From a virus (taxonomy: Duplodnaviria > Caudoviricetes): a stretch of DNA of 64,000 nucleotides. Below are positions 30,734 to 53,547 of this stretch, piece after piece. The position numbers were made by a program, and so were the translations under genes. Where the stretch lies: the IMG/VR virus record IMGVR_UViG_3300028171_000090, positions 64,001 to 128,000 of that record. One strand, given 5' to 3'. The notes beneath the pieces were generated by a model. The model did no database searches. It was given only the letters and a program-made list of their open reading frames with translations, and had not been told where the DNA came from. Each line of letters opens with the position of its first letter. Positions within the stretch are counted from its first letter, which is position 1.

Positions 30734-32884
30734 ATGACTGAAATTAGAGTAGCGAGAGTCAAACGAATTAAGCCAGATGAACTAACAGTAGCTCCTGAAG
30801 AATTATTTGCAAAAGCATTGAAGCTTGCAAAGAAAGGAAAGCTACGTCAAGCGAAGAATACGCTGAAGAAAGCGGGCGTTGAATTATATATGGAACGCTT
30901 CGTTAAAGAAGGTAAAGAAAAGAAAATAGATGAAATGCTTGATAGTGTTGAAGACATTATCAAGGCATTAAAAATCATATACGAAAATGGAAAGGAGTTT
31001 GTAAGCGATAAGATATATGACATAACATTAGATAAATTTAAGTCTTATCGCGCTGAGCCAATTGAGGCTACATTATTTGTTGGTAGACGTACGAAAGATA
31101 CGACACATGAGTTTCCACTATTACGTGGTACATTAGACAAGGCTCATTTTATCTATACAGCAGATAACACACAAAGGAAAGAAGGTACGAAAGATGTTGA
31201 ATCCTTCATTAGAAGTTGGATGGCTAGAAGCCGTGGACCTCTTCGTATCAGATTATCATTAAAGTATGATGGCGTATCTGTCATCTTAGAAATAGATAGT
31301 GTAACAGGTAAAGTTGTATCAGCAATCACTCGTGGTGATGATGGTAATGGAACAGACCTAACACACTTATTTACAAATGTAAGATATCCGAATGCCTTAA
31401 ATGAAATGGGGTTAAACTTCGGATTGAAGACAGAGTTAATTGTAACAAAAGCAAACCGTGATTTATACATGGAAGAACGAGGAAAGAGTTATGCAAACTG
31501 TCGAAGCGCGGCAGTTAGTATTGTATCAGCTAGTAATGGAGCCAAGTATGCAAAGTACTTAACACCAGTTCCATTGTATGCCGTAACAGATACCGATGAG
31601 GAAGTATCCTATGCGGTAATAAACAAAATGTTTGCACAGAACTTAGCACTATCATTTATTGAGTTAGAAGTAACATCGGTAAAAGAAGCGATGGCTAAGA
31701 TTCATGACTTCATAGCAGACATTCGAGTAAAGCGTCCAGACTTAGGATTCGCAATTGATGGTATCGTTATCGATGTAATCAATGATGAGATTCGTGATGA
31801 GTTTGGAAGAAAGAATGCAATTAATAAATATCAGGTAGCTTACAAGTATCCACCCGATGAAGTGCAGACGACTGTTAAAGGATTCGAAGTAACCGTAGGT
31901 CGTACAGGATTATTAACACCGATCCTTTTCTATGATCCGATTGAACTAAATGGTACAATCCACAATCATAGTACACTATCATCTTATGAGAGATTTAGTA
32001 AGATGAATTTACATTACGGAGATACAGTTACAGTATCTTATAACGGTGATGTAATGCCTTATGTGCAACCAACCGTACGACATAACGGGATGGGTCCAGT
32101 CATTGGATATCCTGACCAATGTCCAAGCTGTGGAGGGTCTATAGTACAGAAAGGAAAGAACTATTTCTGTGCAAATGGTAATTGTACAACGAAACATTTG
32201 AATCGTATTACATTCTTTATCAAAGCATTAGGTCTGAAAGACTTTGCTGATAAGACAGTAACACGATTATATGATGAAGGTCTCCTTACGGATATCCCAT
32301 CATTATTTAATCTAGATTATTCAGCTATCTTACAATTAGATGGATTCGGAGAATCAAAAGTAAATAATATAAAGTCTGAGATTGAGAGAATTAGAACCGA
32401 ACCGATACATGATTATAACTTATGTAATGCGTTAGGTATCTCTGGTCCAAAGACGAGTGAGCAGATTTTAAATTGGTATACATTACAAGAAGTAATGAAG
32501 AACTCTTATTCTATCGGGACAGTTAATATTCCGAATGTAAGAGATGCTAAGAAAGAAAACTTTATTAATGGATTAGATGAAGTCATGCCGACTTTACAAT
32601 ATCTATTACAAGAAGTATTTACAAATAACATTATACATTCTAAGTTCGAAGCACATCAGGATACTGGTAAGAAGAAAGTTATGTTTACTGGATTCCGAGA
32701 TAAGGACTTAAAGAAAGAGTGTGAAGCAAAAGGATATAAAGTAGTAGACAGTGGATTCAAAGGGTTGACATATTTAGTGGCAACTGATCCACATGATACG
32801 AGTAAGAAGAAAGTAGCGAAGGCTTTAGACAAAGGTATTGAAGTAATTTCGCGTAAAGAGTTTGAAAAGAAGGTAAGAGGTTAA
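30734..32884 (+). CDS. ligA: NAD-dependent DNA ligase
   Basis: KYDG adenylation motif, TRGD, IDGIVI, AYKYP, VGRTG, CPSC..C..C zinc finger, HhH, BRCT (VMFTGFRD). Confidence 0.95.
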   Translation: MTEIRVARVKRIKPDELTVAPEELFAKALKLAKKGKLRQAKNTLKKAGVELYMERFVKEGKEKKIDEMLDSVEDIIKALKIIYENGKEFVSDKIYDITLDKFKSYRAEPIEATLFVGRRTKDTTHEFPLLRGTLDKAHFIYTADNTQRKEGTKDVESFIRSWMARSRGPLRIRLSLKYDGVSVILEIDSVTGKVVSAITRGDDGNGTDLTHLFTNVRYPNALNEMGLNFGLKTELIVTKANRDLYMEERGKSYANCRSAAVSIVSASNGAKYAKYLTPVPLYAVTDTDEEVSYAVINKMFAQNLALSFIELEVTSVKEAMAKIHDFIADIRVKRPDLGFAIDGIVIDVINDEIRDEFGRKNAINKYQVAYKYPPDEVQTTVKGFEVTVGRTGLLTPILFYDPIELNGTIHNHSTLSSYERFSKMNLHYGDTVTVSYNGDVMPYVQPTVRHNGMGPVIGYPDQCPSCGGSIVQKGKNYFCANGNCTTKHLNRITFFIKALGLKDFADKTVTRLYDEGLLTDIPSLFNLDYSAILQLDGFGESKVNNIKSEIERIRTEPIHDYNLCNALGISGPKTSEQILNWYTLQEVMKNSYSIGTVNIPNVRDAKKENFINGLDEVMPTLQYLLQEVFTNNIIHSKFEAHQDTGKKKVMFTGFRDKDLKKECEAKGYKVVDSGFKGLTYLVATDPHDTSKKKVAKALDKGIEVISRKEFEKKVRG

Positions 32885-32918
32885 TTCCTCTTACCTGTCT
32901 TTCATAAAGCAAAGGAGA

Positions 32919-33332
32919 ATGAAAATGACTAAGACTGTAAAATTAGAAGATGTAGAACCGGGTTCATTATTTAGATATAATGATACAATCGGGTTTAAGA
33001 CAGAATACCGTGATAATGATGGAACTGTTAAAGCATACATCATTGGTTCAGGGGAAACTTTCTGTGGAGGAAGATATACTGATATAAATGAATTAGATGT
33101 TATCCCAATTGATGTAGAGGAAGTTGGAAAAGGTTTGGGTATGCTAAAAGAGATTCTTGCTAGTAGTAGCAGAGATTGGAGCGAATCCTCGGAATTAGCT
33201 TTAATTTGGGGAATTGTATTTGGCTGGGGTAAGAAGGCTATGATAGAAATGCAAGATAAACATGGCTGGTCAAATAAGGATGCTAAGAAATTAAAAAAAG
33301 CTGGAAAGAATGTTTCACGTTTAGCTAAATAA
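32919..33332 (+). CDS. hypothetical protein
   Basis: 137-aa ORF, SD AAGGAG. Confidence 0.75.
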   Translation: MKMTKTVKLEDVEPGSLFRYNDTIGFKTEYRDNDGTVKAYIIGSGETFCGGRYTDINELDVIPIDVEEVGKGLGMLKEILASSSRDWSESSELALIWGIVFGWGKKAMIEMQDKHGWSNKDAKKLKKAGKNVSRLAK

Positions 33333-33365
33333 TAAAAATAATATAAACTAAGGGAGCTAATTAAA

Positions 33366-33887
33366 ATGACAAACGTAAATAAAATAGACGCACTAAACAC
33401 GACAGTAGATATTATCACAGGACCATCATTCACAGTATTTCAAGAAACAGATATTCCTGTAGCAACACCATTTAACTATCTTGAAAAAGGATACAAGAGA
33501 GCATATACATTACCTGATTCAAAACCACATCTTACAAAGGAATATTATTTACCAGAAAATATTGAAGTTCAACTATCATGGATTGGTCATTATATTAACT
33601 TTGATATGCATACTTTTACTGTCAATAATGATGGTAACTTTATGCTACTTAGATTATTTGATAAAAATTTAACACCAATGATATTCAATGCATACGGTGA
33701 TAATGAGCATATTGATATTGCATTAAATAAACATTTTGGGTTACTTGCATCATGGCACGAAACTTCTCTTGTACCATCTAAAGAAAATGAAAATATGGGC
33801 AATCTAGTTTATTATGTCATTATAAAACTAGAAGCCATCGAAAAAATGAAACAAGCGGAAGAAATTAAAGAAAATAATAAACGATAA
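33366..33887 (+). CDS. hypothetical protein (weak similarity to 43459)
   Basis: FTVNNDGNFMLL versus FDINKNGAFMLV. Confidence 0.75.
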   Translation: MTNVNKIDALNTTVDIITGPSFTVFQETDIPVATPFNYLEKGYKRAYTLPDSKPHLTKEYYLPENIEVQLSWIGHYINFDMHTFTVNNDGNFMLLRLFDKNLTPMIFNAYGDNEHIDIALNKHFGLLASWHETSLVPSKENENMGNLVYYVIIKLEAIEKMKQAEEIKENNKR

Positions 33888-33896
33888 GGAAGAAGA

Positions 33897-34196
33897 ATGG
33901 TGAATAAACGATTAGTAGAATACTTGCCTGAGATTACGCAGATTAGAGATTACTTACATAAAGAGTGCGGAGCACCCTTTATGGAAACAAACGTATTAGA
34001 AACATTATTACTTGCAACACATCGATTTACGGTGGTAGAGCAAAGTAAGATACTAATCAGAAAGAAAATGCGTTTCACAAACTTTGTCCTCGATAATTAC
34101 GGGGACAAGTTACCACCAATACGTAAAGCATTAATATTCCATATCGGCTCTAGCATGATTCATTATGCTAGAGTGAAGGAGGAAGAACAGTGTTAA
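33897..34196 (+). CDS. small helical protein, paralogue of 34190
   Basis: L.EY+.E+..I.+++ N-terminus; R+..+++..Y pattern. Confidence 0.7.
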   Translation: MVNKRLVEYLPEITQIRDYLHKECGAPFMETNVLETLLLATHRFTVVEQSKILIRKKMRFTNFVLDNYGDKLPPIRKALIFHIGSSMIHYARVKEEEQC

Positions 34197-34468
34197 GTGA
34201 ATATATTCAAGAATTAAGAATCATTCATGAATTTGTAGAAAGAGCAAATGATGGTATGAAGTTTGAAAGACGTGATGTACAACTAGTACTATCAGCGTTT
34301 ATGAAATACTATCAATCAGGACCTTGGTGGCGTAGATGGTCACCAAGGAGAAATCCGAAACGAGTTGCAAAATATATTGTAAAGAAATATCCAAGTAAAG
34401 ATAAAGATACAATAGAACGAATTACAGTAGCTTTACAAGCCTATTTAATAGTAATGGATTCTATGTAA
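34190..34468 (+). CDS. small helical protein, paralogue of 33897
   Basis: As above. Confidence 0.7.
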   Translation: MLSEYIQELRIIHEFVERANDGMKFERRDVQLVLSAFMKYYQSGPWWRRWSPRRNPKRVAKYIVKKYPSKDKDTIERITVALQAYLIVMDSM

Positions 34469-34503
34469 TTAAAATAAATTAGACTATGCGGGGGAATATA
34501 ACC

Positions 34504-35448
34504 ATGACACAATTAACAATTAATAGAAACTATACTGATAGAGACTGTCTTACGCATGTTGCAGATGATATTCAAATGTATGCGGAACTACTAAGAGGTA
34601 TAGGATATACAAGAGAAGATTTAGAAGCTAACTTCACACATACTGAGGTAGAGTTATTTGACGACTTATTAGTACACAATTATTTCAATACAACTATTGA
34701 GTACTCAAAGTTCTCAGGAGATGCAATGTCAAACTGTATGCAGAAACAGCGTCGTTTAGCAAACAGATTACGTCAAGTATTTACATCTAAAATCAGCACA
34801 CAATTTATGCAACGTGCTGGTATTGAAAGTGATATGCGTACGTTCATAGATGTGCGGACAGAAGAAGTAAAAGAATATGTACAAGAGTATGAGATTGACA
34901 AATGTGCTCAATTGAAATTCTATGCTGAAAGTCTTGTAGAATCATTAGTTAAACCTTCTGATTCAATCATTAAACGTAAGAGAACATTTGATGATTCAAG
35001 AATAGATAAGATACAAATGTATTTAGAGATAGCGTTAAATGAACTTAGAATTCCTATGTATAAATTAAACTTCTGTGGGTTAAGAGGTATTGGTTTGGAA
35101 ATGGTTCAGTTAACAATATTTGAAAATAAATACAATAGTGATGAAGAACTTGCAGAGCATTATGGTACATCTAGACCTCTTATTGAGAGAAGATGGCTAC
35201 CGGTTTTACGCGCTGTAAGAGATTGTACAGCTTATATGTTAGCTGAAAGATTTAGAGAGAAAGTAGATTTACCTAAATACGTAAAAGAATATAATATCCA
35301 CTTTGGAATGCATCTAGAAGGTAGTGACTATACATCTCATTACGCAGAGCAATTATGTGGAGATTATTTAAAAATGCATGTTGAAGGCAAAGCTGAAGGC
35401 ATGAGAGATATTGTATCACATTTAAACTTACAATTAGAATCCGAGTAA
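34504..35448 (+). CDS. hypothetical protein with HTH (sigma region-4-like) motif
   Basis: SDEELAEHYGTSRPLIERRW. Confidence 0.55.
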   Translation: MTQLTINRNYTDRDCLTHVADDIQMYAELLRGIGYTREDLEANFTHTEVELFDDLLVHNYFNTTIEYSKFSGDAMSNCMQKQRRLANRLRQVFTSKISTQFMQRAGIESDMRTFIDVRTEEVKEYVQEYEIDKCAQLKFYAESLVESLVKPSDSIIKRKRTFDDSRIDKIQMYLEIALNELRIPMYKLNFCGLRGIGLEMVQLTIFENKYNSDEELAEHYGTSRPLIERRWLPVLRAVRDCTAYMLAERFREKVDLPKYVKEYNIHFGMHLEGSDYTSHYAEQLCGDYLKMHVEGKAEGMRDIVSHLNLQLESE

Positions 35449-35486
35449 TATAAAACTAAAATAATTAGACTAAGGGAGAAATTAAA

Positions 35487-36266
35487 ATGACATCTAAATT
35501 CGTAAAATCAATCAAACAATATGAGCATACATTAATCGTAGAAGGTAACCCATCTCAATTAGAGAAATTCAATAAAGTATTTGGTGATTCAGCAGACAGA
35601 GTAAAACAAAGTTTCGGTTATAATAACTTAAAGAAAGTTGACTTCTTCTACCAATACTTTTTAATGAAGTTAGGTGGAAAAGCATTTTCTGAGAAGCAAT
35701 ATAAAGGTCATCATATCGAAGACCTTTTTAAATTTATGTATGCAAACTATAATCACTTAAATTTATCATGGGTTACACTTCAACGAATGGATATTGATCA
35801 GGTTGCGGATGGAGTGTTTGATATTGCATTGAAACGTATGAATGCAACACCTGAAGAAAAAGCAGAAGCTGATGAATTATATGTGAAGTTTCTACGTTCC
35901 CATACGCCTGACTATTGCTTCTTCAATTTAATTGAACCAAGTGAGTTTACAAAGTATAGAAAGGAATCTCCTGCTATACCAAGTCACTTGACATATGATG
36001 AATGGAGCACAAAGGTGTTTGGATTAGGTACATTACAATTATATAATATTCCAATTGAACTTAAACGTGAAAAGAAAAGTCGTCATGAATATTCATTCGA
36101 CGTACGTGCTGAAATGAGTCATGATGCAATTAAAAAAATCTCTAAACAGTTTCCTAAGTTAGAGTTTACAATGAAGATTAAGTATAACGATCAAACCCGA
36201 TTTGCTAATAAAACAATAACTGATAAGAAATTTAAAGATGGAAAAGAAAAATCTAAAAAGAAATAA
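35487..36266 (+). CDS. family B paralogue (YubB/DUF1281-like)
   Basis: LIVEGNPSQLEKF, FFNLIEP, YSFD, IKKISKQFPKLEF...FKDG. Confidence 0.6.
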   Translation: MTSKFVKSIKQYEHTLIVEGNPSQLEKFNKVFGDSADRVKQSFGYNNLKKVDFFYQYFLMKLGGKAFSEKQYKGHHIEDLFKFMYANYNHLNLSWVTLQRMDIDQVADGVFDIALKRMNATPEEKAEADELYVKFLRSHTPDYCFFNLIEPSEFTKYRKESPAIPSHLTYDEWSTKVFGLGTLQLYNIPIELKREKKSRHEYSFDVRAEMSHDAIKKISKQFPKLEFTMKIKYNDQTRFANKTITDKKFKDGKEKSKKK

Positions 36267-36291
36267 TCCAATCAAAGGGAGAGAAAGAAAA

Positions 36292-37086
36292 ATGACAAAT
36301 CCACTTAAACGAGTAACAATGACAATGGTTAAACCTGATAAAGTAAAGGCTGAACAATTCTTTACAGTAATTAGAACAGGTTTCCAACCTGATATCCAAA
36401 AAGAGATTGTTGCAATTAATGGGCAAATCTTAGAACAGTTAGTCCAAGCATATAAGTTTGGACTACGTTCAGCTTTTCCTGAAAGAGCAAGTGAGAACTT
36501 ATGGAGATTAAAACAGAATTTAGGATTACCACATTTAATCTCAGCTGTACATAATATGGGGAAAAGGGAGTATGTCGATTATATCAATTCACTACATTTT
36601 ACATTGGAAGATATAGATGCAAACCGCGGGTCAGCGACAAATGAAATTTATATCTACCAAGACCGCTACAATAAACATGTGACAGATATAGAAGTGGACG
36701 GTAGACGTACATGTGTAAGCTTAGCAATGGGTGCTTATAAAGCCCGTAAGAATACATGGACATCTAATCTAGAGTATACAATACAAAGTAAGATGGAATT
36801 AGATATTGAAGCTATGTACACTCTATTAGCAGATTTAGAAAAGACGAAGATATGGGATGTTGTCCATAACTTTGATACAATGAATTTTAGTAGTAAAGAT
36901 AATTTCGTATTTGAATTTACTACTACAAGTGAATGTGACATTGAAGAACTATTCCGACTATTGTCTTATGACGTTGTAGGTGAAATGAATATAACGTCGC
37001 ATACAATTATACCAGAACCTAAATCATTCTCAGCAGGTAGTGGTAGAGTAGTACGACAAGGAGATGCTCGGAAGCTAGTAAAATAA
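36292..37086 (+). CDS. hypothetical protein, probable divergent family B member
   Basis: FVFEFTT...LFRLLS C-terminal pattern; SD AAGGGAG. Confidence 0.65.
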   Translation: MTNPLKRVTMTMVKPDKVKAEQFFTVIRTGFQPDIQKEIVAINGQILEQLVQAYKFGLRSAFPERASENLWRLKQNLGLPHLISAVHNMGKREYVDYINSLHFTLEDIDANRGSATNEIYIYQDRYNKHVTDIEVDGRRTCVSLAMGAYKARKNTWTSNLEYTIQSKMELDIEAMYTLLADLEKTKIWDVVHNFDTMNFSSKDNFVFEFTTTSECDIEELFRLLSYDVVGEMNITSHTIIPEPKSFSAGSGRVVRQGDARKLVK

Positions 37087-37108
37087 AAATTAAAAGAAAT
37101 TATAACTA

Positions 37109-37125
37109 TACATTATAGAGGTGAG
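37109..37125 (+). promoter_or_regulatory. putative early promoter
   Basis: TACATTATAGAGGTGAG. Confidence 0.7.
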
Positions 37126-37189
37126 ACCAAATAAAATATAAGGAGGAATCACTTCTATAATCGATGTTATTAAAAATTAATATCGGCTT

Positions 37190-37201: not shown

Positions 37202-37307
37202 GGAGAGATGAGACTGCTCATCCCAATAACCAAATATTAACAAACTACAATAACCATAACAAATTATTGTAGGAAAAATATACTTAACTTAATTGGAGGA
37301 AATTAAA

Positions 37308-37616
37308 ATGACTAAAACAATCGAAATGAACGAAGAATTCTTCAAAGGACTTTCAGCTTTCCTAGTAGAAAACAATGGAGTTGACTATGATCCTGAAGAT
37401 TTAGATTTATTAGAAATGGTTGTTAAAGGTAACCACCAATATGCTGGTGAAGTACTTGGAGCAAATAAAAATGAAGAAGAACCAGTAGCTTTAGAATTAG
37501 ATGGATTAGTTACATACCAAGCTTCTTATCGTGCAGGTGCAGATGAGTCTGAAGGTAACTTCGGTATTGGTATTACTGCTGGTGAAGAATTAGTTGAATT
37601 AGCAAACGAAGCTTAA
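37308..37616 (+). CDS. acidic HU/IHF-fold-like protein 1 (putative)
   Basis: LELDGLVTYQASYRAG...GITAGEELVELAN resembles HU beta-strands and last helix; about 23 D/E versus 5 K/R. Confidence 0.45.
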   Translation: MTKTIEMNEEFFKGLSAFLVENNGVDYDPEDLDLLEMVVKGNHQYAGEVLGANKNEEEPVALELDGLVTYQASYRAGADESEGNFGIGITAGEELVELANEA

Positions 37617-37680
37617 TTATAAATTGTAGTAAACGTATTACTATTAAAATAAACTAACCAATATACTGGAGGAAATTACA

Positions 37681-38010
37681 ATGGCTAAAACAATTAAAAT
37701 GGACAAGAAATTCTTTGAAGGACAAACACAATTCATCGAGGACAACATGCGTGTACGTTTCGAAGACGCATCATTCGTTGAAGATACTGTGAAAGGTTAC
37801 TACCAATACGTTGGTACTGTAATCGGCGAAGAATTAAAAGATGCTGAAAATGGAGCATCAGTAGTAGTTAAACTTGCTGACTACATCGAGTTCAAAGGTG
37901 TTAAACAGGAAGATGAAATCGTTATCGGAATCACAGCTCATGCTGAGATCAAGAAACGTATTAAATCAGATGCTCAACTAGAAGAGTTAGAAGAATCTGA
38001 CGAAGAATAA
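37681..38010 (+). CDS. acidic HU/IHF-fold-like protein 2 (putative), paralogue of 37308
   Basis: Shared KTI.M...FF.G, VKG..QY.G.V+G and IGITA. Confidence 0.45.
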   Translation: MAKTIKMDKKFFEGQTQFIEDNMRVRFEDASFVEDTVKGYYQYVGTVIGEELKDAENGASVVVKLADYIEFKGVKQEDEIVIGITAHAEIKKRIKSDAQLEELEESDEE

Positions 38011-38026: not shown

Positions 38027-38063
38027 TAGCGGTGACCGAGAGGTTACCGCTACTTATTTTTTT
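38027..38063 (+). terminator. intrinsic terminator
   Basis: TAGCGGTGACC-GAGA-GGTTACCGCTA then T-tract. Confidence 0.8.
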
Positions 38064-38097
38064 ATTGTCACTACAGAAAGCCACGAGGGGGAGTAAC

Positions 38098-39858
38098 ATG
38101 AGTTTTTCAAAATTTATATCACAGTATGAGAATCCCAACAGAAAGAGAATCAATGAAGAGTTAATCTACGGGATGAGAAATGAACCTCTGGTTGATTATA
38201 TCTTAGATGCATTTAAATCACTAGAAGTAATTAATAACATCAAAATGCTAGACTATGACTACATTGAGCATGAGTCTCAGTTCGATACAGATGTTGTTAA
38301 TGAGAAGTATTTAAAGTCTAAGAAAAGCAAAGGAAAGAATATCAAAAAGCACATCAATATTGATGTGACTCGTTACAATATGCTTCGTGTAAACTTTAAG
38401 TTAACGCTAAACAATGAAGTTCAGTATAAGCAAGTAGAACTTCTGTTATTGAAGCAATATAAGAAATACTATCTGATGATGAGTGGGAATAAGTTCTATC
38501 CAATCTATCAGATTGTAGATAGTAGTACCTATAATAATAAGGATTACGTGACATTGAAAACAATGTACATGCCAATTATTATTAAACGGAACACAGGAAA
38601 ACTGAACTCTATAGCAGGAGATTCATTCCAGGTTCCACATTATACATTATGTATCTTCAAGAAGAAATGTAATGCTGTCCTATACTATTTAGCAACAATG
38701 GGATTAGAGAATACATTACGCTTCATGAATGTAGAGGATGCTATCGATGTAGTTGCTGAACCAAACTGGGATGATGAAGAACATCATTATTTCAAGTGTA
38801 ACCATGTATACGTAAAAGTAGTAAAATACTTATTTGACAACGATCACTTCGTTCAGTCAATGGTATATGCGTTACACGAGTTATGTAAGAAGACAGAATT
38901 CCATCAATTAGAAGATGTTGATTATTGGGTCACTTCATTAGGTGCTGAGTTCGCAAAGAATACCAATGGACAGTTAGAGAAAGGAAAGAATGTATTACTT
39001 TCGTTCTATCGTCTATTGGATAACACGACTCGTAAGAGTCTGAAGCTACAACCATTCAACAAAGAAAACATCTATGCATTAATTAGATGGTTACTATGTA
39101 ACTTCTCTGAGTTGAAAGCTAAGGATAATATGGACTTAGCAAACAAACGTATTCGTATGGCTGAGTACATTGCATTCTACTTTATTCGTAAACTATCTAC
39201 GAAAGTAAATATGTTATTAAGCCGTAAACGTAATGCAGTAACAATGGCTGACTTAGTGGGACTCTTAACATTCCCACCAGATGAGTTAATCAAACAGTTA
39301 CACAAAAGTAAATCCAGCTTACTGCGCTATGATAACACTGTGAATGACATGGACTTCTTTACAGCGTTGAAGTATTCAACGAAGGGTCCTGGTTCACTTG
39401 GTGAGCATAGTAGCAATGCTGTAAACATAAAGTATCGCGGAGTACATCCATCACACGTTGGACGACTCGACATTAATACATCAGGTTCATCTGATCCAGG
39501 TATGGGTGGCGTATTTACACCGTTCATGGAGAACTTCGGAATGTACTTTGATGATACGCCTGAACCGGATAATTGGTTAGCAAACTATAAGAAATTATAT
39601 GCGAACCACTTTGAAGGAAAACAATATGAAATTAAAGGTCTTGACTACTTCTATCAACAAGAGAAGAAATCTCGTAAGATGGTAGAACGTCTAGAAGATG
39701 TCCATTACTTCATCCGTAACGATGAGTATAACAAAGGATATAATATATTAGATGTGGATGATAAACTACGAATTGCAAAAGTAGTTCGAGTTGACCCAGC
39801 TAGGGTCAAGACAAAACCAAAAGCAAGAAAAGTGAAAGCAACACGGCTAGAGGATTAA
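38098..39858 (+). CDS. non-virion RNA polymerase beta subunit, N-terminal part (AR9 gp105-like)
   Basis: GNKFYPIYQIVDSSTY, TLKTMYMPI, KDNMDLANKRIRMAEY, LLRYDNTVN, RGVHPSHVGRLDINTSGSSDPGMGGVFTPF. Confidence 0.92.
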   Translation: MSFSKFISQYENPNRKRINEELIYGMRNEPLVDYILDAFKSLEVINNIKMLDYDYIEHESQFDTDVVNEKYLKSKKSKGKNIKKHINIDVTRYNMLRVNFKLTLNNEVQYKQVELLLLKQYKKYYLMMSGNKFYPIYQIVDSSTYNNKDYVTLKTMYMPIIIKRNTGKLNSIAGDSFQVPHYTLCIFKKKCNAVLYYLATMGLENTLRFMNVEDAIDVVAEPNWDDEEHHYFKCNHVYVKVVKYLFDNDHFVQSMVYALHELCKKTEFHQLEDVDYWVTSLGAEFAKNTNGQLEKGKNVLLSFYRLLDNTTRKSLKLQPFNKENIYALIRWLLCNFSELKAKDNMDLANKRIRMAEYIAFYFIRKLSTKVNMLLSRKRNAVTMADLVGLLTFPPDELIKQLHKSKSSLLRYDNTVNDMDFFTALKYSTKGPGSLGEHSSNAVNIKYRGVHPSHVGRLDINTSGSSDPGMGGVFTPFMENFGMYFDDTPEPDNWLANYKKLYANHFEGKQYEIKGLDYFYQQEKKSRKMVERLEDVHYFIRNDEYNKGYNILDVDDKLRIAKVVRVDPARVKTKPKARKVKATRLED

Positions 39859-43414: not shown

Positions 43415-43417
43415 AAG

Positions 43418-43458: not shown

Positions 43459-43986
43459 ATGGAAATTATGAGAGCATTTGGAGCTTCAGGAGTGACAATG
43501 CCGTCACCCGACAAACTTACTATTTATTATAAAAGAGAAGCTTTAAGGGATTTAATATCAAAAGACCTTAATGCAAAAGAACGTCATAAGCAAGGAGACA
43601 AATTACTTAAATCTCTTGCTCATGCAACAGGAATGATTGATACTTGGGAACGGTTCAAGTTGAATCCGCTATATGAAGTGGAATATATTTTATATGGAAA
43701 TTGTGGACTATTAGGTTACTCTTATGATGGAGTACCAGTAGTATTTGATATAAATAAAAATGGTGCGTTTATGTTAGTAAAGTTTACAACTTACTTAGAT
43801 TGTGTAGCACCTGAAGAATTACGAGTAAGTGATATTATGGATTTAAACGCTGTATTCTTAGCGGAAGAACTCTTTATGGATTTGGGAATTGAACGTTGTG
43901 GAGAAACTGTATCGAAAGGTTATCCGACAGTATACATGATTTTACCTAGGACGTACCAGATACCAGACCCATATATAAAATCGTAA
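43459..43986 (+). CDS. family A-related hypothetical protein
   Basis: YILYG, GYPTVYMILP. Confidence 0.7.
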   Translation: MEIMRAFGASGVTMPSPDKLTIYYKREALRDLISKDLNAKERHKQGDKLLKSLAHATGMIDTWERFKLNPLYEVEYILYGNCGLLGYSYDGVPVVFDINKNGAFMLVKFTTYLDCVAPEELRVSDIMDLNAVFLAEELFMDLGIERCGETVSKGYPTVYMILPRTYQIPDPYIKS

Positions 43987-44004
43987 TAACAGTATCCTTG
44001 GCTA

Positions 44005-47046: not shown

Positions 47047-47179
47047 GGAGATATAATTTGTCAGACCTCAATAAGAAACTATTTGAACTTGAGAACTTAT
47101 TACTAGAATTTAAAATGAAACAATTAGAAGAGAAAAAGAACGAAGATAGAGACTTATCCATTACGGATAAGTCTAAAGA

Positions 47180-47207
47180 AGAAAGACCTAAACGTCTTTC
47201 TTTTTTT
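47180..47207 (+). terminator. intrinsic terminator
   Basis: AGAAAGAC-CTAAAC-GTCTTTCT then T-tract. Confidence 0.7.
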
Positions 47208-47256
47208 GTATAAATCTAGAAAAGTTTGACCATTATATTATACTATAAAGGGAGAG

Positions 47257-47832
47257 ATGAAAATGTTATATGAAAGAAAATTAGAAGATAAAGGTTTCCC
47301 AGAGATTACATTCGTGTACGAAACATCGGATGTAGAGGAGCTACAGAAGCTACCTGATACATTTAGAATTATTAAAGAAGATACTACAACTGGGAAGTTT
47401 ACAATAGAAGATTTAAAAATGCCTGGACGTGAGATCACATTGGGTGGATATGAGATTATCCAGCAATATGTAGCACCTATGTTAGCACAGGACTCTATGT
47501 TTAATTTCTTTAGTTCAATTAATCAAGTGTCTGCAACAATGGTATCTATCGTATTTGGCGATGCTACACAAAAAGGTGAAAAGATTGAATTTAAAACATC
47601 GACACAGCCATTCCATGTTATGGTAACAGTTCGTTGGGGTGGATTCACTTCTAACGATATTACGGATGTAGAGTGGCTTGGTAAATATGAGTCTGATTCT
47701 ACAGTTATCTATAATAAAACATATAAATCTGGAAGTGCGGTATTTGATAATGAAACAATGTTTATCATTGAACTACCAGAGTTCTATCTTGGTGGAATGG
47801 AATTTCTTGAAGATATTGAGATCGTACGATGA
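47257..47832 (+). CDS. hypothetical protein (family E)
   Basis: Colinear weak similarity with 47952 and 48574. Confidence 0.75.
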   Translation: MKMLYERKLEDKGFPEITFVYETSDVEELQKLPDTFRIIKEDTTTGKFTIEDLKMPGREITLGGYEIIQQYVAPMLAQDSMFNFFSSINQVSATMVSIVFGDATQKGEKIEFKTSTQPFHVMVTVRWGGFTSNDITDVEWLGKYESDSTVIYNKTYKSGSAVFDNETMFIIELPEFYLGGMEFLEDIEIVR

Positions 47833-47863
47833 GCTAGGGATTAATTTCCCTAGCTTTTTTTTT
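47832..47863 (+). terminator. intrinsic terminator
   Basis: AGCTAGGGA-TTAATT-TCCCTAGCT then T-tract. Confidence 0.8.
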
Positions 47864-47951
47864 CGTAATAAACGCTCTTATACATATACATTATCATATT
47901 AGACGTGTATAAAATACAAGTCACTATAAAGCCGAGGGAGAGAGTTATAAA

Positions 47952-48572
47952 ATGACAAAGTTTCACGAAAACGAACTGGCAGTAGAATTAAAGAATTTTG
48001 GGTTTAAAGGAGACTATCGTTTCATTATTGAACGTAAAGATGTCTCTAAAATGAGTGAATGGTCTGGTGCATTTGGTGTTAATAGTACTGCAAATGATGT
48101 TGTAGACATCAACGATGTAGCTACAGGGGAAAGACGCTATTTAGATGCATTTACGTTTATGAGACTATATTGGAGTCGATTAAATGACCATAACCCAGGA
48201 ATCGATTTCTGTTATGATAAAGGATTCGATGTAACAAAGGTAATGAGTATTGGAGTAGATGTACCGGAATATACTCTAGCTGACGTAAACATTGTTGGTT
48301 CTACAATAGTTGAAGTAGATCGAAATGTTATAGTGAGCGAATCAGATAACACACCTGACGTAACCGATATCAGATTGAATTTGGAAGACCCTAAATTCTT
48401 AATGTTTGTATTTGAATGGGGTACTGAACACACATTAGCACTACATTACTTACAGTATATCGTACATGCTAAAACAGTAACATCTGATGATAAGAATCTA
48501 TTATTAATTGTCGTACCAAATCAAGAAGTAACGTACAACAGAATCAGTCGCATCGGAAAGGTGGAACAATAA
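47952..48572 (+). CDS. hypothetical protein (family E)
   Basis: 206-aa ORF, SD GAGGGAG. Confidence 0.75.
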   Translation: MTKFHENELAVELKNFGFKGDYRFIIERKDVSKMSEWSGAFGVNSTANDVVDINDVATGERRYLDAFTFMRLYWSRLNDHNPGIDFCYDKGFDVTKVMSIGVDVPEYTLADVNIVGSTIVEVDRNVIVSESDNTPDVTDIRLNLEDPKFLMFVFEWGTEHTLALHYLQYIVHAKTVTSDDKNLLLIVVPNQEVTYNRISRIGKVEQ

Positions 48573-48573
48573 C

Positions 48574-48993
48574 ATGGAAAATACAGAAAACATATATAGC
48601 TTTGATATTTCAACAAACTTAACAATAGCAGGTGTTTCAGAGGAGTATTTAGAAGCATTGCCTCAACATCCAGAAGTGTATACAGATACAGCGTTAGAAA
48701 CAATGTGCTTACGAAATGGAATTCCTATATCAAATGTTATTTCACTGGAGGGTGAGGTAACGATTGGTAAGAATAAACACGTTACATTTAGAGCGTTAAC
48801 AAAAGGTGCATATCAACGATTCATCAAAATTAACTGGGGTAGTCAATCTTCAATGTACCATGACTTTACAGTTGATATGGATGAATGCTATCATCTAACT
48901 ACAAGACGTGCAACACAGGAGCATCCTTATAATGAAACTTATATTGTAATCAATAATTATGCTCAAGTATTAAATTCAATTAATATTAGATAA
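48574..48993 (+). CDS. hypothetical protein (family E, shorter)
   Basis: 139-aa ORF. Confidence 0.7.
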   Translation: MENTENIYSFDISTNLTIAGVSEEYLEALPQHPEVYTDTALETMCLRNGIPISNVISLEGEVTIGKNKHVTFRALTKGAYQRFIKINWGSQSSMYHDFTVDMDECYHLTTRRATQEHPYNETYIVINNYAQVLNSINIR

Positions 48994-49052
48994 ATAAAAA
49001 ATATAAACGGGTGTATCCAAAAGGTACACCCTTAAAAAGGGGAAAGGCTCAA

Positions 49053-49709
49053 ATGAGAAACGGATATTTAAAAAGACACTTTGATACACATAAAATTAGC
49101 TTATTGTCGGATAGTGCATCGGAAGATTTTAAAATACACATACCACATAAAGTAATTACAGCTATGCTAAGTGAATATGTGGAAGGTGTAAAAATTATTG
49201 ATAGTGTGAAAGCTCAATCCGTATCTATTACCTATATAGAGAATGGTAAGGTATGGAACAAAGAATATTATACACCACTAGATGTGCTGGAGGATGTCAT
49301 GCGTTTACGGAATGATGCGCTTTCAGAAGATATGTACGAGAACGGGATAAGTACGTACAACTACATTGAAGTAAGTGGGACGTTAGATGAATCTGGTGGA
49401 TGCTTTACTATTCAAGAAGAAGCTATTTGCTCAGACACATTATCTATTTTATACTATGTCAATTGCGGTATCGATAAAGAATATATTGATGCAACGAAAC
49501 CATGGGCTACATATGTGAATGATATGTTACCAACGTTTAGTTATGCAATGTATTTAGCAGGGGATAGAAAATGGGATGTCGGTGAATTAGTCACTGGATT
49601 AGAAGGTAGAGCAACACATCCAGATGAATCTGATGAGGAATATGCTAATTTAAGCACGGGGGAGTTTGACGAATTATTCGGTCCAAGCGGAAGCAAATGG
49701 AAACGATAA
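49053..49709 (+). CDS. family D paralogue
   Basis: IPHKVITAML, SVSITY, VSGT...GGCFTI...DTLSILY. Confidence 0.75.
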   Translation: MRNGYLKRHFDTHKISLLSDSASEDFKIHIPHKVITAMLSEYVEGVKIIDSVKAQSVSITYIENGKVWNKEYYTPLDVLEDVMRLRNDALSEDMYENGISTYNYIEVSGTLDESGGCFTIQEEAICSDTLSILYYVNCGIDKEYIDATKPWATYVNDMLPTFSYAMYLAGDRKWDVGELVTGLEGRATHPDESDEEYANLSTGEFDELFGPSGSKWKR

Positions 49710-49756
49710 GATAAAAAGTATATTAAAAAAATATACCTTAGAGGGAGACAAGTACG

Positions 49757-50260
49757 ATGGGAACACAGCCACATTTATTAAAATTGCTTTCTTCAAGTAC
49801 AGACTTAAAGGGGTTAGTATTAACTATTGCTCACGATGAGATAATTGCTATGATCCGTCGTGAGATTGCAGGTCATGTAAGGCTTACAGAATATGATAAT
49901 ACTAAGTCAGTCACAATTGCATATAATGATGGCGAATCAGGGGAGATTACTCATTGCTTTACTGGTCCATTAGAAGTATTAGAGTTTATAAAAGCAATGG
50001 AAACAAAGAACAATGAATTTGTCGATAACTACCGCTTTGATTTAATTGGAGCCAATGGTACATTCCAACCTATGAAAGAAGAGTTTGTCATTCATAGTTT
50101 AGGTACAGATAGCCTGTCTATTGCCTATCGTGCAAAAGATGGGGTAGCTAGTATCAAAGGACTTAAACCAAATCTATTTACTTCTAGACGATTAGGTACA
50201 GGAGGATTTAGAAACTTCCATAACATAATCGTTGATGCGGCAACCGATAAAGATTTGTAA
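49757..50260 (+). CDS. family D paralogue
   Basis: IAHDEIIAMI, SVTIAY, ANGT...EEFVI...DSLSIAY. Confidence 0.75.
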   Translation: MGTQPHLLKLLSSSTDLKGLVLTIAHDEIIAMIRREIAGHVRLTEYDNTKSVTIAYNDGESGEITHCFTGPLEVLEFIKAMETKNNEFVDNYRFDLIGANGTFQPMKEEFVIHSLGTDSLSIAYRAKDGVASIKGLKPNLFTSRRLGTGGFRNFHNIIVDAATDKDL

Positions 50261-50267
50261 TAAATGA

Positions 50268-50301
50268 AAAGGAAGCGAATTAACGCTTCCTTTCTTTTTT
50301 T
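50268..50301 (+). terminator. intrinsic terminator
   Basis: AAAGGAAGCG-AATTAA-CGCTTCCTTT then T-tract. Confidence 0.85.
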
Positions 50302-50336
50302 GTCTATTTTACTCTTACATTACCCAACATTATTAT

Positions 50337-50436
50337 AATCGGAAAATATTCCGAATTTCCTCCTCAGGTATATTATTGTACTTAGACTATGGACAAAGAA
50401 AGTGGTATAGGCGCTCAGCCTATACCACTCCTTTTT
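50337..50436 (+). ncRNA. candidate late small RNA 1 with anti-SD tract
   Basis: AACA-TTATTA-TA promoter (50326-50337), 5' hairpin UCGGAA-AAUA-UUCCGA, AUUUCCUCCUCAG, terminator at 50401-50436, no SD-led ORF. Confidence 0.4.
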
Positions 50437-50437
50437 A
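50396..50437. terminator. bidirectional intrinsic terminator
   Basis: AGTGGTATAGGC-GCTCA-GCCTATACCACT with T-tracts on both strands. Confidence 0.8.
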
Positions 50438-51529
50438 TCTCGAATACATAACCTCATAAACCGTACCTAATCTGTCACGTGCAATTCCTTTATCTTTATC
50501 GAATTGAATACGTCCAACAGAGTCTCTATCTGGTAACGGATGATCATCTAACACTTCTCCTAAAGCGTTAACCGCTTCGAACTCCCATCTTTCTGATGGT
50601 AACCATTTACGGATAACAATCTTAATACCAGTATCACCTTCATAATGGAATGCTTGCTCATTGTCTGTTAAGACAATATCTTCAGCCTCAACGAGCTGAT
50701 CGAAGCGTGCATCAATCATATCATCGAAATCCTCTTCACCCAAGTCTTCCAATGCAATTTCATCTTCAGGAATACCGAAGTTATAATTCGGGTCTTCTTC
50801 CAATTTCTTTTTCTTCTTCTTTTTCTTCGTTGTAACGGTAGGTGTATCAGTATCCATTAATTGAGCAAATGCTTGGTTGATTAAGAATTCATCACTAGCA
50901 CCAGCTCCACCCGCAGCGTTACCTTCTTTCGCTTCTCTAGCCGCACGTTTAAGCTCAAGGTCAGAGATACTTTTATTAACAGATGTAATCTCTTTTACGA
51001 TACTTAACTTTGTATTTACTAGTGAAGCTAAGTTAGATGTTTGGTTCGTAATAGCTGTTAAGTAGCCTCTATAATGAGGTGTCTTTTTCAGCATATCTAA
51101 GAATGCTTGACCATCTTCTGTCATATGATTAATATTTTTAAGTAGGTCGCGTAGCATCATAATGGAGCCATCGAAACGTTGTTCGTAGAAGTCTTCTGCA
51201 CTCTTATCTGCTTTTGTTGCAGGTACAGGAGTTCCACCACCACCTTCTCCAAATATATCTTTATTTGTTCCACTCATCTCGTAAAGTGCTGATATAGCAC
51301 TTTGACGTTTCTTACCGCTTTTTTTCTTCTTCGATGGTTTCTCTTTCTTTTTTTTCTCTTTTTCTTTTTTATCTTCGTGCATTTTATCTCGTATACGAGT
51401 ACTAGCCATTAGGCTATTTAAGATTGCTAAGTCCTTATCATTTTCTTCTTTATACACGCTTGGTATAGAAGTAGGTAACTTTTGTGATTTGGGTTCTACA
51501 CGTTTTACCTTTGCTATTCTTAATTTCAT
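50435..51529 (-). CDS. late hypothetical protein with central coiled coil (possible T4 gp16-like small terminase)
   Basis: N-terminal MKLRIAKVKRVEP, K-rich and acidic low-complexity tracts, helical hairpin EDGQAFLDMLKK...NTKLSIVKEI. Confidence 0.8.
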   Translation of the reverse strand: MKLRIAKVKRVEPKSQKLPTSIPSVYKEENDKDLAILNSLMASTRIRDKMHEDKKEKEKKKKEKPSKKKKSGKKRQSAISALYEMSGTNKDIFGEGGGGTPVPATKADKSAEDFYEQRFDGSIMMLRDLLKNINHMTEDGQAFLDMLKKTPHYRGYLTAITNQTSNLASLVNTKLSIVKEITSVNKSISDLELKRAAREAKEGNAAGGAGASDEFLINQAFAQLMDTDTPTVTTKKKKKKKKLEEDPNYNFGIPEDEIALEDLGEEDFDDMIDARFDQLVEAEDIVLTDNEQAFHYEGDTGIKIVIRKWLPSERWEFEAVNALGEVLDDHPLPDRDSVGRIQFDKDKGIARDRLGTVYEVMYSR

Positions 51530-51551
51530 ATATATTCCTCCTCTACGTATA

Positions 51552-51563
51552 TAATATATTGTT
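51552..51563 (-). promoter_or_regulatory. putative late promoter
   Basis: AACA-ATATAT-TA on the minus strand. Confidence 0.6.
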
Positions 51564-51588
51564 TTAAGTTTAACATTCGTCTTAAATA

Positions 51589-51605
51589 TATATTATCTAA
51601 GTGAA
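51589..51605 (+). promoter_or_regulatory. putative early promoter
   Basis: TATATTATCTAAGTGAA upstream of the polymerase. Confidence 0.65.
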
Positions 51606-51675
51606 AGAGAAAAGACTTGAAATTGAAAAGGAGGGAAACACTTCATTAACCGAGAATAAAGGGAGGAATTTTAAT

Positions 51676-53547
51676 ATGGATATGACCAAACTACTGGGAC
51701 TGCCAGAAGGCGGGGATTACATCTTATTAAATCAGATGTACCACAAGCCTAAACGTGATGGAGATGATATGACTCCAGACGCTATCTCACTAATTATTAA
51801 AAACATAAAGACGGGTGAGAAGCAATTAAAGATTATTGAGAATCCACAGATTGAAGCATATGTGGCAAAGGATGATGTCCAAATAGACTATCCTATGATT
51901 TGTATAGAAGCCGATAAAGTTAATAAGGTTGATTTAAGTTACCGTTATGTCTTGAAAGATATAGCTGGTCTAATTGGTGAGCAAGCCGTCAACCAGTATT
52001 GGCAGATGATTAAAGAACGACGTTCTTCTGAATTAAAGAACTTCCATAAATGGAATCGTATCTTCTCATCTGATGTAGATGTAGAGGATTTCTATAAGTT
52101 TAAATGTCTAGAACACTTTGGAACAAAAGAGAAGTTTAAGTTAACTAAGGGGTTCCTAGATATAGAGGCAGATATCTATGCAGGAAACATTGATATGAAG
52201 AATGTAGAAGGTTCTGCTCCTATTAATGCTGTAACACTTGTGGACAATGATAAGAAACAATCGTTCACTCTATTATTACGTAACTCAGAGAATCCATTGA
52301 TTGCGGAATTCGAGCAAGACATTCCAGGATTCATTGAAGAGATTGAAGCTGAGTTCGAACCAGAATTCGGTAAACTTGAGTACCATATTATCATGTGTGA
52401 TACTGAGATAGAATTAATCAGAAAGTTATTCCAGATTATTAATATTATCCGTGTAGACTTTATGATGGTATGGAACCTCGGGTTCGATTTTCAGTACATT
52501 ATGCACCGTATCGAACGATTAGGAATTGACCCAGAAGACATCATGACGGATGAAGCATTCAAGTATAAAGAGTGTTGGTACTATGCAGATAAACGTAACT
52601 TTAAAATTAACCGTAAAGGTGATTATGCAACACTAACTAGCTTTACAGTATGGGTAGACCAAATGATTAACTATGCAGCGATTCGTAAATCGGGTGCAGA
52701 GTTAGATAGCTATAAGTTAGATTACATAGGTGATAGAGAAGTAGGAGCTAAGAAGTTAGAATATACGGGTACAGCAAACTTCAGAAACTTACCTTATGTA
52801 GATTACAAGATGTTTGTACGATACAATATTCGAGATGTACTTATTCAGATGAAAATCGAAAATAAATTAAATGATATCGAGTTACTGTTTAATAAAGCAT
52901 ATGACTCTAGTACACGATTCAATAAAACATATAAAGAAACTGTGTTCCTGAGAAATAAAGCAGCAATGGAGTTCCAGGAGCAAGGATTAGTTATGGGTAA
53001 TAATCATAATATTACCTATGGTGAAAGTTCAGGAGATAGTGAGAACCAAGAGCGCTTCGAGGGTGCCGTAGTTGGTGATCCGAAGTTAAACTTGCCTACA
53101 GGTATGAATATCTTGAAGAACTATCAATCACGAAATGTATTTAATAACGTAATGGACTTTGACTATAGTTCACTATATCCATCGATTATCATGATATTCA
53201 ACATATTTGCTACGACGCAGCTGGGTCGAGTCATTATGGATAATCGTAACATTACGAAACGAGAAGTTATCACTGATATGGACAAGTATGATAGAGGTGG
53301 TAAGTTCATTGAAGATTTAGAATTAAACGAACCAGTTCAATTCATGCATCGTTGGATGGGTATGCCATCTGCTGAAGATATGCTTGAAGAGTTCGGACAT
53401 GAGCTTGGGGAACGTGCTATACGTAAGGCTCGTGTACAATATGTATCTAAAGTTAAGAAAGATGACAAGAAGAAGAATAAGAAAGGTGTCGAAATACGTA
53501 AAGTAAAAGCGACCAGACTATCGGAGAAGGTGAAGGTTACATGGTAG
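51676..53547 (+). CDS. family B DNA polymerase, N-terminal part (3'-5' exonuclease + motif A) of a split PolB
   Basis: FLDIEAD (ExoI), VWNLGFDFQYI (ExoII), SYKLD, YNIRDV (ExoIII), DFDYSSLYPSII (motif A); ends without motifs B/C. Confidence 0.9.
   Translation: MDMTKLLGLPEGGDYILLNQMYHKPKRDGDDMTPDAISLIIKNIKTGEKQLKIIENPQIEAYVAKDDVQIDYPMICIEADKVNKVDLSYRYVLKDIAGLIGEQAVNQYWQMIKERRSSELKNFHKWNRIFSSDVDVEDFYKFKCLEHFGTKEKFKLTKGFLDIEADIYAGNIDMKNVEGSAPINAVTLVDNDKKQSFTLLLRNSENPLIAEFEQDIPGFIEEIEAEFEPEFGKLEYHIIMCDTEIELIRKLFQIINIIRVDFMMVWNLGFDFQYIMHRIERLGIDPEDIMTDEAFKYKECWYYADKRNFKINRKGDYATLTSFTVWVDQMINYAAIRKSGAELDSYKLDYIGDREVGAKKLEYTGTANFRNLPYVDYKMFVRYNIRDVLIQMKIENKLNDIELLFNKAYDSSTRFNKTYKETVFLRNKAAMEFQEQGLVMGNNHNITYGESSGDSENQERFEGAVVGDPKLNLPTGMNILKNYQSRNVFNNVMDFDYSSLYPSIIMIFNIFATTQLGRVIMDNRNITKREVITDMDKYDRGGKFIEDLELNEPVQFMHRWMGMPSAEDMLEEFGHELGERAIRKARVQYVSKVKKDDKKKNKKGVEIRKVKATRLSEKVKVTW

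Follow-up and report, generated by a model that had tools for sequence, protein, structure and literature searches.

Why do a DNA ligase, an RNA polymerase subunit, a DNA polymerase and a protein without assigned function carry nearly the same short basic peptide at an end of the chain? The question is raised by a stretch of 64,000 nucleotides, here called the window, which covers bases 64001-128000 of the 223,016-bp IMG/VR virus record IMGVR_UViG_3300028171_000090 (estimated 90% complete). Coordinates follow the window numbering unless marked as genome; G000 denotes the genome carrying the window and G003 that of phage AR9. An earlier note on this DNA had described the pattern hydrophobic-R-x-[AV]-[KR]-[AV]-x-R-hydrophobic on four proteins and had read it as a common docking or targeting signal. 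In the present analysis the peptide, called the tag below, was found to depart strongly from chance, to stand at protein ends and to be under selection as a protein sequence. In the sequences compared, the orthologous ends of a large clade of AR9-related jumbo phages retain a tag, which is genome-specific and co-varies among unrelated proteins.

The phage has a G+C content of about 34%. The open reading frame (ORF) 38032-39858 is about 31% identical to gp105 of AR9/PBS1, the N-terminal half of the beta subunit of their non-virion RNA polymerase (nvRNAP); the genes around it follow the AR9-type order: C-terminal part of beta (beta-C), ligase, HU-like, N-terminal half of beta (beta-N), SbcC-like and N-terminal part of the family B DNA polymerase (PolB-N). 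On this match and gene order, the source is an uncultured distant relative of the AR9/PBS1 group, an AR9-like jumbo phage. Megablast of the ligase region against phage records returned zero matches.

A terminal peptide selected at the protein level

Translation placed the tag at all four sites as they had been described. The NAD-dependent DNA ligase (30734..32884, + strand) carries it at residues 4-12 (IRVARVKRI, nt 30743-30769), behind an ATG preceded by GAGGAGG, and its Pfam domains (DNA_ligase_aden at 143-374, plus OB and BRCT domains) begin only at residue 143. In beta-N, the orthologue of AR9 gp105 (38098..39858, +), two tags are situated in the C-terminal tail, LRIAKVVRV at 39766-39792 and ARKVKATRL at 39823-39849. 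The start of this protein is likely the ATG at 38098 (MSFSKF), as in the database copy P0005, and not the longest-ORF start at 38032; the alignment with gp105 is limited to residues 19-511 of 608. PolB-N (51601..53547, +), which comprises the exonuclease domain and motif A, also ends in two tags with a K-rich linker between them, IRKARVQYV (53419-53445) and IRKVKATRL (53494-53520). Its PHROG match stops at residue 604 of 648, its real start is probably an internal ATG and not the longest-ORF start at 51601, and the C-terminal part of the polymerase (PolB-C) is encoded by a separate gene (genome 149487-151427). The fourth protein, P3 (P0003; 50435..51529, - strand), has 364 aa, belongs to the AR9 gp142 family (phrog_27823) and carries the tag at residues 3-11 (LRIAKVKRV, nt 51523-51497). 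In ligase, beta-N and PolB-N the copies lie outside the catalytic homology, beyond the ranges matched by Pfam, PHROG or AR9, which agrees with the earlier placement outside the catalytic folds.

The pattern was searched, with its position unconstrained, in the six-frame translation of the whole 223-kb genome. It gave 10 matches, against a mean of 0.03 when whole proteins were shuffled and 0.018 when terminal 40-mers were shuffled, the latter preserving the basic composition of the tails. These results exclude chance or composition as the explanation, so that the frequency is beyond the random expectation for basic tails. All 10 matches fell inside real genes or long ORFs at 1-45 residues from a protein end, and no match was found in the non-coding frames of the genome. 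Eight of the 10 were situated within 20 residues of an end, positions which represent 14% of the total. A reversed-proteome control was uninformative because the regular expression is palindromic. When a small profile was built from the matches, the top 14 ranks were all terminal instances, adding a DnaB-type helicase, a 125-aa DNA-binding protein and, more weakly, the N-terminal part of the RNA polymerase beta' subunit (beta'-N) and RusA. The two flanking basic positions were arginine in 12 of 12 instances, though lysine was allowed. Half of the tags are C-terminal; the N-terminal ones begin 1-12 residues after the start codon, which is preceded by a GAGGAGG ribosome site.

The similarity of the copies resides in the protein and not in the DNA. 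The tags of P3 and beta-N are nearly the same (KLRIAKVKRVEP and KLRIAKVVRVDP, identical at 10 of 12 residues), and the octapeptide RKVKATRL is identical in beta-N and PolB-N with five of the identical residues using different codons. Over the tag pairs, different codons were found at 3-6 of the identical residues (9 positions). These differences rule out a repeated DNA element or a recent copy, and the earlier view of selection at the protein level holds.

The motif is not limited to the four proteins of the window, since further bearers were found genome-wide. GyrA (genome 53191-55656) has a tagged N-terminal end, its real start being most likely the ATG at residue 8, which is preceded by AGGAGG. 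The DnaB-type helicase (genome 44704-46353) begins with MRKARVKRT. A PC4-like DNA-binding protein of 125 aa (genome 172624-173001), whose AR9 orthologue gp093 is annotated as PC4 family, ends in ..RKVKAIRL. The tag was also found on proteins of 291 aa (genome 3128-4003), 321 aa (genome 48530-49495, two copies), 323 aa (a DUF1281_C protein, genome 205849-206820) and 73 aa (genome 210691-210912), and beta'-N and RusA represent weak cases.

The tags of this genome fall in three subtypes. Subtype 1, I-R-x-A-R-V-x-R-[VI], is present in ligase, GyrA, DnaB, the 291-aa protein, the second copy of the 321-aa protein and the first copy of PolB-N. Subtype 2, [VI]-R-K-V-K-A-x-R-L, is found in the first copy of the 321-aa protein, the second copies of beta-N and PolB-N and the 73-aa and 125-aa proteins, and the 323-aa protein nearly conforms to it. 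Subtype 3, K-L-R-I-A-K-V-x-R-V-[ED]-P, is formed by the first copy of beta-N and by P3. Each two-copy tail (beta-N, PolB-N and the 321-aa protein) combines one A-R/K-V-type with one V-K-A-type tag.

Wherever the function of a bearer can be recognised, it is an action on DNA or RNA; this holds for NAD ligase, GyrA, DnaB, PolB-N, nvRNAP beta-N and the PC4-like protein, with RusA as a weak case. The remaining five bearers (291, 321, 323, 73 and 364 aa) have no assigned function. Usually one subunit per complex is tagged: GyrA is tagged and GyrB is not, PolB-N is tagged and PolB-C is not. Beta-C, SbcCD, the Dda-like helicase and RNase H are likewise free of the tag, and no recognised virion protein carries it, whether major head, terminase, sheath, portal-like or another structural protein. 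Behind the tag, P3 has a stretch of acidic residues and a K-rich linker, then a DIFGEG motif inside the chain, a hairpin of helices and, at the C-terminal end, a small beta domain. The first 29 residues have a predicted local distance difference test (pLDDT) score of about 45 in the AlphaFold2 (AF2) model. A function search for P3 and the 321-aa bearer in ESM Atlas, AF2 and BFVD returned only uncharacterised relatives, AR9 gp142 among them, and a peptide-pattern search of IMG/VR returned no close relatives of P3.

Orthologous ends and genome-specific flavours

Relatives were sampled as the neighbourhoods of seven beta-N relatives, available as contigs, together with three complete genomes (G001, 234 kb; G002, 259 kb; and AR9). 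The database holds about 60 beta-N homologues, and those at 38-56% identity carry tails of 80-130 extra residues. In at least 20 homologues the extended tail closes with one or two lineage-specific peptides of alternating aliphatic and basic residues; the 490-aa AR9-type beta-N proteins possess no such tails. The tag is conserved in orthologues in the sense that the same ends are tagged and each lineage has its own version, here called a flavour.

In four contigs (L006, L007, L074 and L076) the same four ends are tagged as in the window, the N-terminal ends of ligase and P3 and the C-terminal ends of beta-N and PolB-N. Each genome has a basic variant of its own, for example K-I-K-I-R-R-K, K-V-K-V-R-R-L, K-V-K-I-K-R-I or V-L-K-I-K-K-K. 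Two further contigs (L073 and L075) show a different peptide, K-x-L-F-K-N-K, at these ends: KKLFSK or KKLFKKD in ligase, RPLFKNKK in P3, and SLFKN...ELFKRK or KRLFKN...KKLFKNK in beta-N. The orthologous PolB-N tails contain two or three copies of the local flavour. The GyrA proteins of close relatives (P0082, P0084 and P0087) start with a K-rich extension bearing the local tag, and no such tagged extension is present at the N-terminal ends of bacterial GyrA.

The complete genomes showed that the charge of the tag is not conserved. The flavour of G001 is neutral to acidic, [PK]-[LM]-[YVI]-[VI]-[ND]-L-[DN]-L, and stands at the C-terminal ends of PolB-N (..PLIIDLGEVM), beta-N (..MYVRLNMNGDDDWI), beta-C (..KMVIDLDL), the PC4-like orthologue (..GPLYVNLDL) and a 165-aa acidic protein (..GPMYINLDL), and at the N-terminal ends of GyrA and P3 (..MYVNIDLP). 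The regular expression for this flavour matched eight times in G001 where 1.2 matches were expected, and six of the eight lie at most 20 residues from an end; two bearers came out of this search without having been used in building the expression. Acidic linkers precede the neutral or acidic tags of the sister clades, as in ..EEEEGPMYINLDL and ..DDGPLYVNLDL. The flavour of G002, [KR]-K-x-M-C-x-I-V, occurs in three copies in the PolB-N tail and at the C-terminal ends of DnaB, an HNH endonuclease, a helix-turn-helix (HTH) protein and one further protein. In AR9, gp105 ends in ..EPEINLNIDDISIDEV.. (..INLNIDDISID..) and gp142, the P3 orthologue, begins with MADNINIDIS. This similarity is suggestive of an I-N-I-D-type flavour of AR9 itself, common to gp105 and gp142, though the match is short. 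The expectation that gp105 of AR9 would be free of the motif proved right for the basic form only, as the protein appears to have a flavour of its own.

Two HNH endonucleases of mobile type carry the flavour of the genome in which they reside. One in L007 (3186-3854, +) ends in ..KVRIKRII and another in G002 (genome 160047-160964; L115:47-964, +) ends in ..KKEMCIIVRKD. These C-terminal ends suggest that selfish HNH nucleases copy the address tag of the resident genome.

Co-variation was measured over eight genomes as the best 7-mer similarity between ends, with low-complexity windows excluded and with the genome labels permuted within protein classes. Different proteins scored 21.2 when taken from one genome and 16.9 when taken from different genomes; orthologous ends compared between genomes scored 17.4. 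The observed within-genome value was not reached in any of the 5000 permutations (P = 2e-4). In most of the eight genomes the tag at the N-terminal end of P3 follows that at the C-terminal end of beta-N, and in this one the two are nearly identical. An all-against-all comparison of terminal 8-mers recovered tags in all four complete genomes, but it was not used as a statistic because paralogue families dominate it.

A second short motif, D-[IL]-F-G-[DEN]-[GD], was also observed. It is situated inside P3 after the K-rich linker (KDIFGEGG, residues ~85-100), at the N-terminal end of a ligase (L073:3731-5968, LLDIFGND) and at the extreme C-terminal end of beta-N in the G002-type clade (loci L013-L034, ..DIFGDGLMFY..). 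It has the look of a further docking peptide belonging to this system. Separately, the DnaB-type helicase of AR9 (G003 3583-5268, +) ends in ..DSGIPF, which we take to resemble the acidic-hydrophobic C-terminal tip of bacterial single-stranded DNA-binding protein (SSB).

Probable docking on a common partner and its alternatives

The peptide is probably a short linear docking motif, an address tag, read by a common partner. The uniformity of the tags within a genome and their change between genomes point to a common co-evolving partner, though mutual recognition of the tags would also be able to produce this pattern. In the proposed mechanism, the tag would be located in disordered N- or C-terminal tails of proteins working on the phage genome, and one co-evolving partner would read all the tags of a phage, probably as an extended strand added to a groove. 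Binding as an extended strand is suggested by the alternating aliphatic and polar residues and by the low model confidence of the free N-terminal end of P3. Ligase, gyrase, helicase, polymerase, nvRNAP, small DNA-binding proteins and resident HNH endonucleases would thereby be concentrated at the site of replication and transcription. Of the docking or targeting system proposed earlier, the shared and selected terminal peptide has stood, as seen in the enrichment, the codons, the orthologous ends and the co-variation including the change of charge; a hub did not emerge.

The most likely reader, named tentatively and with low confidence, is the protein encoded immediately after PolB-N. This 213-aa protein (P0069; 53541..54182, +), whose start overlaps the PolB-N stop, had been called clamp-like before, and its fold supports the description. 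The AF2 model has a pLDDT of 75, and all the best 50 Foldseek matches in PDB are sliding clamps (PCNA, beta, T4 gp45, UL44 and 9-1-1), including solved complexes of clamps with terminal peptides of ligase, FEN-1, RNase HII, MutL and UmuC. In ESM Atlas it reached a template modelling (TM) score of 0.67 to gp45-type clusters, and the sequence-family searches (Pfam and PHROG) left it unrecognised. The position of the gene after PolB-N is syntenic in L006, L074 and L076 and also in G001, where the encoded protein has 216 aa. Clamps are known to recruit their partners through terminal client peptides on polymerase, ligase and nucleases. The non-basic flavours (..N-L-D-L, K-x-L-F-K-N-K and D-I-F-G-D-G) in our view recall classical clamp-binding peptides, such as QL[SD]LF and the C-termini of the T4/RB69 polymerases. 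A classical clamp is reportedly absent in one jumbo phage group according to a comparative review, which we assume, unconfirmed, to be the phiKZ/AR9 group. No clamp loader of RFC or gamma type was detectable in G000, and P0069 is slightly basic (isoelectric point 8.3, net charge +2). On these grounds it may be a loader-independent processivity factor, like the herpesvirus UL42/UL44 or the clamp-derived domain of Rhc of chimalliviruses. In the related Chimalliviridae, Rhc is a direct binding partner of DNA polymerase, and both DNA polymerase and nvRNAP subunits were co-purified with it (PMC13648698). As a side observation, residues 129-192 of the clamp-fold protein are matched 24 times, each in a separate stretch, by the database protein P0071 (2,457 aa), apparently a giant protein of repeated clamp-domain-like units.

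Several findings weigh against docking on a common reader, and on P0069 in particular. The charge of P0069 is not complementary to the strongly basic tags and K-rich linkers, and its counterpart in G001 has an isoelectric point of 6.8 and is thus not more basic, so the global charge does not co-vary with the flavour. A screen for orthologues more acidic here than in G001, G002 and AR9 yielded no convincing reader candidate, and no test named a reader of the tags. GyrA, DnaB, HTH regulators and HNH endonucleases would be unusual clients of a clamp. The basic flavour, which contains no glutamine or aromatic pair, fits no published clamp-binding consensus, as compared with Qxx[LIM]xx[FY][FY], QL[SD]LF, APIM and the T4 type. 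The co-variation statistic may be inflated by shared composition of the tails despite the exclusion of low-complexity windows, and the AR9 match, being short, is suggestive only. When the clamp-fold protein (alignment A2) was modelled in complex with residues 1-32 of P0003, the score was 0.00, below the mark; made without controls, the run speaks neither for nor against binding.

Other candidate readers were considered. The acidic HU-like paralogues (37293-37616 and 37681-38010, +), which had been suggested as a hub, are situated 5' of beta-N in all the clades sampled. They were rejected as a clade-specific reader since they are core genes, present upstream of beta-N also in the clades with non-basic tags. 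The acidic tail at their C-terminal end has 8-14 acidic residues in the basic-tag clades and is shorter elsewhere, a weak lead. The most acidic proteins were also rejected as hubs; among them P0074, a 213-aa protein with a net charge of -38 (genome 134559-135200, -; L077:6559-7200), is composed of a D/G/T-rich acidic disordered N-terminal stretch of about 115 residues followed by a helical domain, and has no family match.

The same evidence bears on the other explanations of the tag. Targeting to a replication compartment or factory, in which an importer or shell receptor would admit or retain tagged proteins, we regard as unlikely. The tagged set mirrors the cargo reported to enter the chimallivirus nucleus (PMC13282480), one tag per complex would fit piggy-back import, HNH endonucleases of two lineages carry the local flavour as would be expected of an entry ticket to the DNA, and the basic tag with its K-rich linker is similar to a nuclear localisation signal. 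A tubulin/FtsZ-family protein is encoded as well (5941-7056). However, AR9-like phages are without chimallin and are not known as nucleus formers (PMC13282480), and chimallivirus import is explicitly independent of terminal signals (PMC12908238). Nothing of a shell or importer family could be recognised among the larger proteins covered by the scan, which was not exhaustive and had no dedicated chimallin profile. Translocation signals, moreover, usually hold their physico-chemical class, whereas this tag goes from basic to neutral or acidic between sister clades. That change of charge also argues against a generic nucleic-acid-binding tail, where basic peptide and linker would raise DNA affinity through composition or convergent selection. 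Such a tail would suit bearers which act on DNA or RNA and the strongly basic tags of this clade, and the pseudo-symmetric R-x-small-x-small-x-R could fit a DNA groove either way. But at the orthologous ends of G001, G002 and AR9 the tags are neutral or acidic, which leaves no electrostatic binding possible; composition-preserving shuffles gave 0.018 against the 10 observed, arginine is invariant at both flanks, and discrete flavours co-vary within genomes. This makes the plain tail very improbable.

Direct association of the tags with one another would require no separate reader, the self-complementary amphipathic strands pairing with each other, possibly with DNA as counter-ion. Mutual recognition would by itself account for the likeness within a genome. 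The alternation of aliphatic and polar residues, the pseudo-palindromic motif, the mirror-like subtypes R-x-A-[KR]-V-x-R-[VI] and R-K-V-K-A-x-R-L, one of each per two-copy tail, and the likeness of the beta-N C-terminal and P3 N-terminal ends, near-identical here and alike in most other genomes, are all consistent with it. Like-charged basic strands would repel each other, however, nine residues are short for stable pairing, and the mirror subtypes are missing from the other basic-tag genomes; we therefore hold it improbable. Least credible, to the point of being hardly worth entertaining, is a capsid-targeting or processing signal, either for prohead loading as in T4 or as a mark for proteolysis. 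AR9-type phages do package a virion RNA polymerase and encode a prohead protease, but C-terminal ends are tagged here as well as N-terminal ones, no hydrophobic-x-Glu protease site follows the tag, and the bearers are a non-virion RNA polymerase, ligase, gyrase, helicase and polymerase, with no recognised virion protein among them.

A bolder reading would be that in AR9-type phages, which lack chimallin, protein termini bear a linear address code peculiar to each genome, and that this code gates access to the phage DNA or replication factory. We consider this rather doubtful. The phage RNA polymerase would be included under such a code and resident homing endonucleases would copy it, and fast co-evolution with the reader would exclude host proteins and those of co-infecting phages. 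Sorting and exclusion by terminal signals would then be distinct both from clamp docking and from chimallivirus import.

Further features of this genome were also recorded. A GroEL-like chaperonin is encoded at genome 154470-156209. A large paralogue family (window ~13800-30000 and 43459-44000; for example genome 81418-89598, 92971-94014 and 107459-107986) shares [LV]-[HRN]-[IV]-Y-[IV]-P at its C-terminal ends and accounts for most of what the all-against-all comparison of terminal 8-mers brings up.

Meaning and comparison with known systems

That replisome proteins share terminal docking peptides is an established principle. This motif was not found described in the literature searched, and the structure paper on AR9 nvRNAP does not discuss the C-terminal tail of gp105. 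What was not found described is the motif family in AR9-related phages, its reach to a core subunit of nvRNAP, gyrase, helicase, small DNA-binding proteins and HNH proteins, and the genome-specific flavours with inversion of charge at conserved positions. If all the tags have one reader, this would be the hub that organises replication, repair and middle/late transcription in a large branch of jumbo phages which has received little study and to which AR9 and PBS1, cultured phages of Bacillus, belong; the tag would then give a direct handle on this hub by peptide pull-down. The docking reading, if true, would show coupling of a phage RNA polymerase to the replisome outside T4, and would account for the terminal extensions on phage ligase, gyrase and helicase. 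The flavours would represent a natural experiment on how a dozen contacts between peptide and receptor co-evolve in concert. Tags could also predict phage proteins that act on DNA, in this genome those of 291, 321, 323, 73 and 364 aa.

The capsid-targeting sequence of T4 is similar in that one short terminal peptide is placed on many unrelated phage proteins. It differs in being an N-terminal leader on head-internal proteins that is cleaved after hydrophobic-x-Glu, whereas the bearers here are conserved non-virion DNA enzymes. Another parallel is seen in the T7 replisome, with the acidic C-terminal tails of the gp4 helicase and the gp2.5 SSB, and in the hub at the C-terminal tip of Escherichia coli SSB. 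In such systems flexible and nearly identical tails of different replisome proteins compete for one site. The PC4-like protein of G001 and AR9, of ssDNA-binding type, likewise ends in an acidic linker and a hydrophobic tip. In the system described here, however, ten or more proteins are tagged, N-terminal ends are included and the tag is basic in this clade, while in the SSB system the enzymes bear the pockets and not the tag.

Import into the chimallivirus nucleus through PicA/Imp1 singles out the same functional classes of proteins, in distant relatives that share split PolB and nvRNAP genes. In Goslar and PhiKZ, the clamp-derived Rhc is found together with DNA polymerase, nvRNAP and PicA (PMC13648698). 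The difference lies in the signal, as the import depends on surface patches of folded cargo and not on terminal signals (PMC12908238, PMC13282480). AR9-like phages are placed outside Chimalliviridae (PMC13282480), and neither chimallin nor PicA was recognised among the large proteins scanned here, in a scan that included no dedicated chimallin profile search.

The clients of sliding clamps also share features with the present system. The PIP box, QL[SD]LF, the gp45-binding C-termini of gp43, gp33 and gp55 in T4/RB69 and the T4 ligase peptide (PDB 6drt) are, like the tag, short peptides in disordered terminal tails. There, as here, the peptide is common to the replicative polymerase, ligase and other DNA enzymes, and T4 adds transcription factors, making one hub of replication and late transcription. 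The gene for a clamp-fold protein adjoins the polymerase gene in this genome. Clamp motifs, however, are usually stable, whereas the flavour here shifts radically between related phages; GyrA, DnaB, HTH and HNH proteins and a core subunit of RNA polymerase are among the clients here, and no loader was found in G000. If P0069 were the reader, for which our confidence is low, the system would by analogy be a much-diverged network of clamp-client peptides extending to the phage RNA polymerase.

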